The position numbers and the translations under genes were made by a program. A DNA stretch of 64,000 nt from Naegleria gruberi (Eukaryota): NCBI GenBank assembly GCA_000004985.1, contig GG738863.1. One strand, given 5' to 3'. Of this stretch, positions 52,193 to 53,578 are shown piece by piece. Numbering within the stretch: the stretch's first letter is position 1; each line of letters opens with the position of its first letter. Below the pieces are notes generated by a model. That model searched no databases. It had not been told where the DNA came from and saw only the letters and a program-made list of their open reading frames with translations.

Positions 52193-53578
52193 TTATGATT
52201 TGGAAAGGTTGCAAACAATATAGGCAATCTCTGTTGTGTCCACAATCACCTTAAGGAATATGGTTTTCACACTTGAAAGCTTTGCCAACATTGCAAAAGT
52301 ATTACCAATCACTGAAAGTCTTTCGAAATAGGTAACTGTAACACTCTCCAAACTTTCCAGAGTTTCTTCGTGAACATAATTAATAAAGAACATCATATTT
52401 CTGCCTCCCTCATACATATCATAACATTCCATTTCTAATCTTTCAATCTTGTTCAATTTGGAAACAATTTCAGCTAAGAGGAGTGGGCTACTCATATCTG
52501 AAACGCAAATTTTGAGGGCTTTTACATAATCATTCATATTATCATTTGTCATTTCAGCCATTTCAAGTTCTTCATCTGTATCCTCGTCCATATTCTGAAA
52601 AGTTTGGCACACTTCATAGTAGGATAGTGCCGAGTGTATCTCTCTTCTTGTAGTGCTTTGGGTTCCTTCCAATGTTTTCCATGTACTTACTGGTGAAGAT
52701 TCCTTTTTGAATTTAGGTTTGAAATTCCCTACTGTTGTATACAACTCTTCAACAAGATTCTTCTCAATGGCCTCTAGTTCATCTAAATTCATTGAATTTA
52801 AATCAATTTTATCATCAACAGATGTTGTATCATTTTGAGTATCTGAATCATCTTGCATTTCTCTAAATTCAGGATAGATTGGATCCTTAAGTGGTTTCTG
52901 TGTGTCTGGTGTTGGAAGGTTGAAGAATTTATAATCAGTACTCTTTTCATCCAAATACTTATTCTGCATTTCTAATAAATATTTAATGACCTTCACTCTA
53001 TACGAATATAATATAGGAGAAATAGAGTTGAGGAAAACTGTAAGATCAAGAGTTTCATCCTTCATTCTTTTAAACATTGATTGTTCTAAATGATTTCTTA
53101 CCGATTGTGAAACCAATCGATGTTTGATGTATGTGAAAAACCATGGATCCCTTACGGAGATGGTTTTTCTAATAGCACCTCTCTTATCATAATATGTAGC
53201 TCCACCATAAACATTAGAGTAGGTTGGAATGAAGGAAATAATTTCAATCTTCACATCCAGTGGCAAAACTGTCAATGTTGATGCCGTAATATTTTGATCA
53301 TCAGCATTATTATTGACAGAAGAATGATTTTGTAAAAGATCCTTCAATATCCACAATCTTGCTACCTTCAAACAATCTCTGTACGGAGAGAATTTAGTTT
53401 GAATATCAAGCTTATCCTCCTGAACAACATTTTGCAAGGAATTCTTCATGGTGGCCATGCAATTTCTTTGGATGAGCTTTTCCATCAATTCTCTATTCTC
53501 CTGAATACCTAGCAAATTATGCCTTGGTGTGCCTGGTCCTCCTGTTGACTTTCTAGCTGTCTGTCTTGTTCTTGCCAT
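52193..53578 (-). CDS. protein of unknown function whose N-terminus copies the histone H3 tail ([14 protein letters not shown]...)
   Basis: ATG in aaaaaaATGg context. Residues 2-14 ([13 protein letters not shown]) match H3 ([13 protein letters not shown]) except for K4R. The remaining ~445 aa show no histone fold. Stop is TAA. Confidence 0.55.
   Translation of the reverse strand: [461 protein letters not shown]

Follow-up and report, generated by a model that had tools for sequence, protein, structure and literature searches.

The 64,000-nucleotide (nt) stretch of Naegleria gruberi DNA analysed here (GenBank assembly GCA_000004985.1, contig GG738863.1; hereafter the window) contains a minus-strand gene for a non-histone protein that starts with an almost exact replica of the histone H3 tail. 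As it stands in the window, the open reading frame (ORF) runs from an ATG at position 53578 to position 52193 and encodes 461 amino acids (aa), the first 14 of which match H3 at 13 of 14 positions. The sole change is an arginine in place of Lys-4 (K4R). A1-R2-T3 follows the Met, R2 being invariant in the tail-bearing members from Naegleria, and the A7-R8-K9-S10 (ARKS) module is intact. An earlier note, made from the sequence letters alone, had described a non-histone protein with an H3-tail N-terminus, a substituted K4 and an ARKS module, and it was right on all three counts.

When canonical H3 is compared with the whole window by tblastn, a single match is returned (16 of 22 residues identical, one gap), in which the aligned part of H3 is residues 1-21. 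The H3 core matches nowhere in the window, and Pfam scans detect no Histone domain in the window protein or in the family members described below. Within this family, the proline aligned to H3 P16 (P18) is nearly invariant, being kept in at least 90% of the members. Based on the amino-acid composition of the window's own long ORFs, the probability of at least 12 matches out of 13 at a given N-terminus is about 6e-15, with about 1e-10 such cases expected per 20,000 proteins, and chance resemblance to H3 is hence rejected. The tail and the body are encoded in one exon, and residues 1-25 are predicted by AlphaFold2 to be disordered, with a predicted local distance difference test (pLDDT) score of about 30.

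The start codon at 53578 is very probably real, as the earlier note had also judged. Given the in-frame TGA that precedes it, this ATG is the earliest possible start; its sequence context is aaaaaaATGGCA, and the next in-frame Met is residue 32. The Met of the tail is likewise the first ATG past an in-frame stop in all five of the family loci examined, which represent at least four species or strains. It should also be noted that the presumed 5′ leader holds an upstream ATG-TAG pair (window 53620-53625, minus strand), about 45 nt 5′ of the ATG, and that this pair is kept in a second N. gruberi assembly.

The homologue search proposed in the earlier note proved strongly positive for conservation of the tail. 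In an alignment of four proteins (the window protein, those of N. fowleri and N. lovaniensis, and a paralogue from N. gruberi), the longest invariant run is MARTRQTAR, which spans 9 columns, and the second-longest runs span 4 columns (TPLH, FIPT). Pairwise identity among the four is about 26%, except for the N. fowleri/N. lovaniensis pair at 59%; past the first 12 columns, only 12% of the ungapped columns are invariant. Six of codons 2-12 are not the same in N. gruberi and N. fowleri, and all six differences are synonymous. Two of these require more than one base change, namely R8 (AGA/CGC, two changes) and S10 (TCA/AGT, three changes), and the tail codons of N. lovaniensis add CGA, ACC and AGG variants. 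Differences that are synonymous only argue against the tail being a 5′ untranslated region (5′UTR), a recent capture of H3 or an assembly artefact; recent capture or gene conversion from an H3 gene is accordingly considered unlikely. Taken together, the codon and protein comparisons indicate that conservation within the family is highest in the tail and that the translated peptide has been under long-term purifying selection. In Naegleria, this selection appears to be concentrated on residues 1-12, and not on 14-28: the sequence after the tail reads GGPGTPRHN in the window protein and NGFNPIAHQ in N. fowleri.

Exhaustive searching with phmmer recovered 11 relatives, the named ones all being 'hypothetical' proteins of Heterolobosea: XP_002677515 and XP_002671977 from N. 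gruberi, C9374_007677 and C9374_011622 from N. lovaniensis, FDP41_008203 from N. fowleri and KAL9652365 from Willaertia magna. Several metagenomic sequences complete the set. A twelfth, weak match (P0012, E 5e-4) was set aside as an unrelated repeat protein. Most homologues begin with the H3 tail, including those of N. fowleri and W. magna, both N. lovaniensis proteins and the N. gruberi paralogue XP_002677515. R4 is found in the window protein and in four other Naegleria members, that is, in five of the five tail-bearing proteins from this genus; K4 is retained in the W. magna homologue and in the metagenomic sequence L004b. The W. magna protein matches H3 over residues 1-22, K14 and K18 included. 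Profile searches for further homologues yielded almost nothing and a scan of metagenome contigs yielded none, so far placing the family, as judged by these searches, in Naegleria and Willaertia only.

Several of the family loci deserve separate description. The heterolobosean metagenome contig L004 carries two family paralogues in tandem on its plus strand (268-2916 and 3014-5563), with the N-termini MSRTKQARSTSS and MLQKKPRRAVDAF. One has a degenerate H3-like start (MSRTKQARS) and the other, MLQKKPRR, has none, which looks like erosion of the tail following duplication. The closest distinct homologue (55% identical; metagenome contig L003, 340-420, plus strand) starts MVQRRSSYGSKVPRNE; directly upstream of its ATG lies an in-frame TVRKST, possibly a remnant of TARKST, and a stop or frameshift occurs ahead of the F-box-like motif described below; this gene may be a decaying copy. 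Finally, on the N. lovaniensis contig L002, the 5′ half of C9374_007677 (H3 tail and WGR domain) is present twice (6853-8463 and 9878-11500) next to a run of undetermined bases (N), which is probably an assembly duplication.

The 461-aa reading of the earlier note did not survive comparison with an independent metagenome contig of the same species, L001 (ENA ERZ929261), which differs at 10 of 2,448 coding nt (99.6% identity). L001 lacks one G that is present in the window, and its ORF extends to 544 aa; deleting this G from the window restores a frame that can be aligned with the homologues. The TAA at 52193-52195 is reached solely through the frameshift, and 461 aa is thus a truncated reading. 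The frameshift could be either a real lesion in the NEG-M reference strain or an assembly error, and in the former case the NEG-M copy may be truncated, inactive or a pseudogene. Manual inspection of the window/L001 alignment produced no candidate intron that would skip the frameshift.

Downstream, removal of a putative intron of 38 nt, whose sequence is identical in L001, would join the corrected frame to a second exon. Other splice acceptors at this junction, giving introns of 18 and 84 nt, lead to early stops, and the frame is kept by the 38-nt intron only. The full gene is therefore predicted to span 53578..51092 and to encode about 815 aa. Colinearity of the joined protein with full-length homologues (623-903 aa) extends over its entire length, and the N. 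fowleri homologue lacks introns. None of the four forms of the product that were tested is present in a collection of 15 billion proteins, and the search for relatives of the window protein gave no near-identical N. gruberi protein. By comparison, seven of ten tested ORFs from the window are identical to annotated N. gruberi proteins (EFC45340..., UniProt D2VCP3 to D2VCR7). It thus seems that the N. gruberi reference has no gene model for the locus at 51092-53578, the failure probably being caused by the frameshift; the reference genome misses or misreads this gene. The coordinates of all features are collected in Table 1.

Table 1. Features of the H3-tail gene in the window.
Feature	Position	Strand	Remarks
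461-aa ORF	52193..53578	minus	reading of the earlier note
Upstream stop TGA	53597..53599	minus	in frame, 7 codons 5′ of the ATG
H3 N-terminal tail mimic, codons 1-14	53537..53578	minus	identical in L001
Weaker H3 similarity, codons 15-22	53513..53536	minus	PGTPRHNL (H3: KAPRKQL); tblastn
Conserved helix, residues 65-81	53336..53386	minus	consensus PY..C.KLA.LWILKD; family alignment
F-box-like first helix, residues 102-119	53222..53275	minus	LPxD/E..EII.FIPT; weak profile matches
Conserved helical segment, residues 144-180	53039..53149	minus	after a variable loop; possible rest of an F-box; no alignment to F-box profiles
Leucine-rich-repeat-like region, residues 354-456	52210..52519	minus	alternating strand/helix; AlphaFold2 pLDDT 56-80, mostly >=65
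Frameshift, one extra G	52216	minus	ATATTgTTTGC; alignment of the window with L001
Exon 1 (predicted)	51981..53578	minus	tail, conserved helix, F-box-like motif, leucine-rich-repeat-like region; interrupted by the frameshift in the NEG-M assembly
Putative intron, 38 nt	51943..51980	minus	GTAAGT...TAG; once removed, exon 1 and the ankyrin exon are in frame
Exon 2 (predicted)	51092..51942	minus	stop TAA 51092-51094; ORF joined via the putative intron
C-terminal ankyrin repeats, residues 719-799	51143..51385	minus	IEKQPLL...TPLH...RW.LIP.L...DV.AKD..G.TPLDY

The body, which the earlier note had described as lacking any histone fold, indeed has no match to the H3 core; it carries ankyrin repeats and possibly an F-box-like and leucine-rich-repeat (LRR)-like scaffold. 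The assignment of ankyrin repeats at the C-terminus is solid. A profile built from the family finds designed ankyrin proteins of the PDB with an E-value of 4e-24, Pfam Ank_5 matches the window protein at 9.7e-5, just under the curated cut-off, and Ank_5/Ank_2 match five to six of the ten members at 1e-4 to 2e-4, also just under the cut-off. The TPLH of the ankyrin signature is one of the second-longest invariant runs mentioned above.

The F-box/LRR part is a possible lead. In the family architecture, an F-box-like first helix is followed by a conserved WW..YLKHRLIS.S.K..LE segment, and an acidic linker separates the F-box-like helical region from the LRR-like region. The Pfam F-box profile (PF00646) finds no match in the window protein; in the homologues it gives sub-threshold matches (E 0.024 in three of ten; 8.7e-4 in two of eight). 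The top PDB sequence match for the F-box-like region is FBXO4 at a non-significant E-value of 0.36, hhalign against a hand-entered F-box alignment gives P-values of 1e-3 and 2e-4 over helix 1 only, and PRANC is matched weakly (E 0.76). For the LRR-like region, the F-box/LRR proteins TIR1, COI1 and Ctf13 are near the top of a Foldseek search with the AlphaFold2 model, all at E-values above 0.1, and the family profile of the region has FBXL5 as its best PDB match (E 0.62). A separate AlphaFold2 model of residues 55-209 (pLDDT 60) returned only generic helical fold matches. The F-box and LRR hints are independent of each other, each is sub-threshold, and together they remain weak. One member, C9374_007677 of N. 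lovaniensis, also carries a WGR domain (E 8e-16). This domain is otherwise typical of PARP-type DNA-damage and chromatin proteins, and its occurrence in one family member hints at a nuclear setting.

From these comparisons we are confident that the N-terminus of the family is a selected mimic of the H3 tail. We lean, by a modest degree, towards the fuller reading that it is a selected N-terminal H3-tail ligand which docks to H3-tail binders and sits on a scaffold resembling a ubiquitin-ligase adaptor. In this scheme, the initiator Met would be removed, given that residue 2 is Ala, exposing a free A1-R2-T3 as in H3 and displaying the Q5-T6-A7-R8-K9-S10-T11 segment as H3 does. The tail could then occupy pockets normally filled by the H3 tail. 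Since selection falls on residues 1-12, the expected readers are those of the N-terminal anchor and of QTARKS(T), and not those of the K14/K18/K23 region; candidate partners would be N-terminus-anchoring modules of the PHD, WD40 or BIR type, as well as enzymes and readers that act on ARKS (K9/S10). Because R4 is found in all tail-bearing Naegleria members, position 4 would not be methylated by SET-type enzymes, and docking would be independent of H3K4 methylation. The weaker step is the body acting as an F-box/LRR substrate receptor that ties H3-tail binders to a cullin-type ubiquitin ligase, either by bringing them in as clients or by letting the ligase adaptor be targeted or regulated through them. 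The titration or recruitment of H3K9 writers and readers, which the earlier note had put forward as a decoy function, is one of several possibilities. More specific still is a heterolobosean family of cullin-ligase adaptors in which the H3 tail serves as bait blind to K4 methylation, with captured readers, writers or erasers being ubiquitylated or the ligase being steered to particular chromatin; we regard this version as doubtful.

A number of observations weigh against this reading. The NEG-M reference copy is frameshifted, and the two N. gruberi strains differ by nine non-synonymous changes and one synonymous change, corresponding to a pN/pS of about 2.3 (small counts). This ratio is compatible with neutrality and with relaxed or diversifying selection on the body in N. 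gruberi, making strong constraint on the body hard to reconcile; that none of the 10 differences falls in the tail is uninformative at this count. The tail is eroded or lost in some relatives (MLQKKPRR, MPRRGTPAP and the L003 start given above), and the 1842-aa N. gruberi paralogue P0011 and the metagenomic P0005 carry other N-terminal sequences, so the tail must be dispensable for at least part of the family. As for the body, the F-box is not established, in view of the missing Pfam match in the window protein and of a profile comparison that covers the first helix alone; both AlphaFold2 models are of low confidence (pLDDT 52 and 60), and the fold searches are not significant. Finally, none of the neighbours of the N. 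fowleri and N. lovaniensis locus (EF-G-like, NUDIX, TBCC, HAD, RGS) is found in the window. Given this lack of synteny, the window gene could be either an orthologue or a paralogue of the gene at that locus.

Some of the same observations would be expected if the gene were a decaying relic: fusion to the 5′ part of an H3 gene in an ancestor would have created the tail, and the N. gruberi copy would now be a pseudogene or a drifting gene whose tail has no function there. The one-base frameshift, the neutrality-compatible strain differences, the eroded tails of several paralogues and the absence of all four tested forms from the protein collection fit such a history. However, the second strain retains an open frame of 2.4 kb (counting the putative intron), the tail is invariant across N. 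gruberi, N. fowleri and N. lovaniensis despite synonymous turnover, the frameshift could be an assembly error or strain-specific, and fast-evolving bodies are usual in substrate-receptor families. We therefore consider decay unlikely. The opposite concern, that the tail is not part of the protein at all, supposes that its codons are 5′UTR or intron with translation starting at Met32, or that the locus is a chimera with an H3 gene. AG dinucleotides in the tail codons could in principle act as splice acceptors, but the junction occurs in two independent assemblies and in relatives from three other species, conservation with synonymous codon changes is unlike that of untranslated sequence, the tail Met is the first ATG past an in-frame stop wherever this was examined, and the window holds no H3 core. 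An artefact is thus extremely improbable, and a chimeric misassembly, one of the refuting cases named in the earlier note, is excluded by the independent contig and the other species carrying the same fusion.

Two further explanations accept the tail as functional and differ on what it would do. In other eukaryotes the H3 tail serves as a nuclear import signal, and the family might copy this signal for karyopherins and histone-binding WD40 chaperones without mimicking any chromatin mark. The Willaertia homologue, which retains H3 1-22 with K14 and K18, and the WGR domain of one member, suggestive of a nuclear role, would suit such an import or chaperone handle. H3 K14, K18 and K23 have been reported to be important for karyopherin binding, however, and in Naegleria conservation ends at residues 1-9 to 1-12 with none of the three kept; nor is a classical K-K/R-x-K/R signal present. 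This makes an import handle quite unlikely. Alternatively, the tail may be an intramolecular pseudo-ligand bound by the protein's own ankyrin or LRR domain, holding it in an auto-inhibited state or a head-to-tail assembly until K9/S10 is modified. Ankyrin repeats of some chromatin proteins do read histone tails, and the tail and ankyrin repeats occur together in all full-length tail-bearing members. Nevertheless, tail-less paralogues retain the ankyrin repeats, and the models are too poor for docking; we hold the idea to be very unlikely.

Mimicry of histone tails has been described for a handful of short motifs, in proteins of viruses, bacteria and animals. The automethylation site of G9a and the tail of influenza NS1, which the earlier note had invoked, are four-residue ARK(S/T) mimics at internal or C-terminal positions; they share the A-R-K-S/T module with the window protein and lack the A1-R2-T3 N-terminal anchor. 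F-box/LRR (FBXL) receptors and F-box proteins with ankyrin repeats, such as Legionella AnkB and the poxvirus ANK/PRANC proteins, have an LPxE-type helix followed by repeats, and the window protein may resemble them in this order. Unlike them, it has no Pfam F-box match at threshold, nor do its homologues, and the best matches to this class listed above are all non-significant. We know of no F-box protein that carries a histone tail. Compared with histone H3 and its variants, the family is alike over the first 12-22 residues; it has neither the histone fold nor the alphaN helix, and the remainder is unrelated.

Among proteins with a mimic at the extreme N-terminus, the closest comparison is with the H3 N-terminal mimicry proteins (H3TMs: SALL, BCL11, FOG, VRK1, PCLAF and others), which are defined by the motif iM-Z-R-X-K and in which the residue after the Met (A, G, S, C, T, P or V) allows Met removal (PMC8166343). 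These proteins engage PHD, Tudor or NuRD (RBBP4) modules via the motif; SALL, BCL11 and FOG bind NuRD, while VRK1 binds PHF2 (PMC8166343). The window protein is likewise a non-histone protein with the mimic at its very N-terminus, a small residue 2 consistent with a removable Met, and R2. It differs in having R4 where the motif demands Lys-4, which would not make a ligand for readers of trimethylated K4; in the extent of the identity, about 3-6 residues being shared with H3 in human H3TMs as opposed to 12-13 in the window protein and 22 in Willaertia; and in including the K9/S10 module ARKS. The H3-like N-terminus of PAF15/PCLAF is bound by the PHD finger of UHRF1, which ubiquitylates the protein (PMC7060239). 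Both are cellular non-histone proteins with an H3-like N-terminus, which is free in PAF15 and predicted to be so in the window protein; in PAF15 it is bound by the reader that also binds H3, and tail mimicry is thereby tied to a ubiquitin ligase. In PAF15, however, the mimic belongs to a ligase substrate, whereas in the window it would sit on a ligase-adaptor-like protein; the window protein is much closer to H3 in sequence, and the lineage (Heterolobosea) and family are unrelated. The SNAG domain of SNAI1, GFI1 and INSM1 sits in the catalytic cleft of LSD1 (PMC5066116). It fills an H3-tail site as a hook without being turned over, and its non-lysine position 4 parallels K4R; in contrast to the window tail, SNAG (PRSFLV...) resembles H3 by shape and not by sequence, and is found on zinc-finger transcription factors. 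Relative to the known N-terminal mimics, then, what appears to be new is the extent of identity (12-22 residues versus 3-6), the K9/S10 module, K4R and the scaffold. Our literature search found no paper that joins Naegleria to histone mimicry or to an H3-tail F-box protein.

The gene lies among ordinary eukaryotic genes. These include a copine gene, which diverges from the same intergenic region, a reverse-transcriptase/RNase H element, and the genes for TCF25 and for a DUF913+UBA protein. The product of the copine gene (Copine domain, E 2e-73) has at its end a long tail with internal repeats, rich in P/Q/G/Y (55800-56430, plus strand); the same stretch gives rise to long ORFs in other frames and on the opposite strand, which are spurious. 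On the minus strand, 6 kb from the H3-tail gene, a 545-aa ORF (59237-60874) has an RNI-type LRR match (LRR_6, E 1e-5); BLAST detects no similarity between it and the H3-tail gene product. The gene downstream (50051-51000, minus strand) encodes a Thr/Asn-rich, single-pass membrane-like protein that is broken by an N run (50812-50977) and is intact in L001 at 4101-5345, with 414 aa. The retroelement is a 1247-aa ORF (38654-42397, minus strand) with reverse transcriptase (E 3e-28) and RNase H (E 1e-13) matches, adjoined by a 327-aa ORF (42384-43367, minus strand) annotated as an N. gruberi predicted protein.

Altogether the window contains six N runs totalling 3447 bases (7542-7844, 14042-14625, 18239-18438, 22884-24948, 29724-29852 and 50812-50977). 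These gaps account for a dip in GC content to 15-18% at 22-26 kb and for ORFs that overlap on opposite strands in that region and at 14 kb. ARAGORN reports a 72-nt tRNA with anticodon UCA at 8609-8680 (plus strand), labelled tRNA-SeC. A genuine selenocysteine tRNA is much longer, and an Rfam scan of the window at gathering thresholds is negative for tRNAs and for every other RNA family; the ARAGORN call is probably a false positive or a pseudo-tRNA.

What these observations mean for the biology of the family can be stated at several levels. In N. gruberi, a free-living protist retains a whole, in-register H3 tail, free N-terminus included, on a non-histone scaffold. With residues 1-12 kept, K4 replaced and position 14 onward free in Naegleria, the family amounts to a natural test of which segments of the H3 tail can serve as portable ligands. 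It also offers access to the proteins that bind the H3 tail in a deep-branching eukaryote, by way of a peptide that is one residue off H3. Should the bait version of the reading turn out to be true, the family would represent an endogenous histone-tail decoy system with no described counterpart in animals, fungi or plants.

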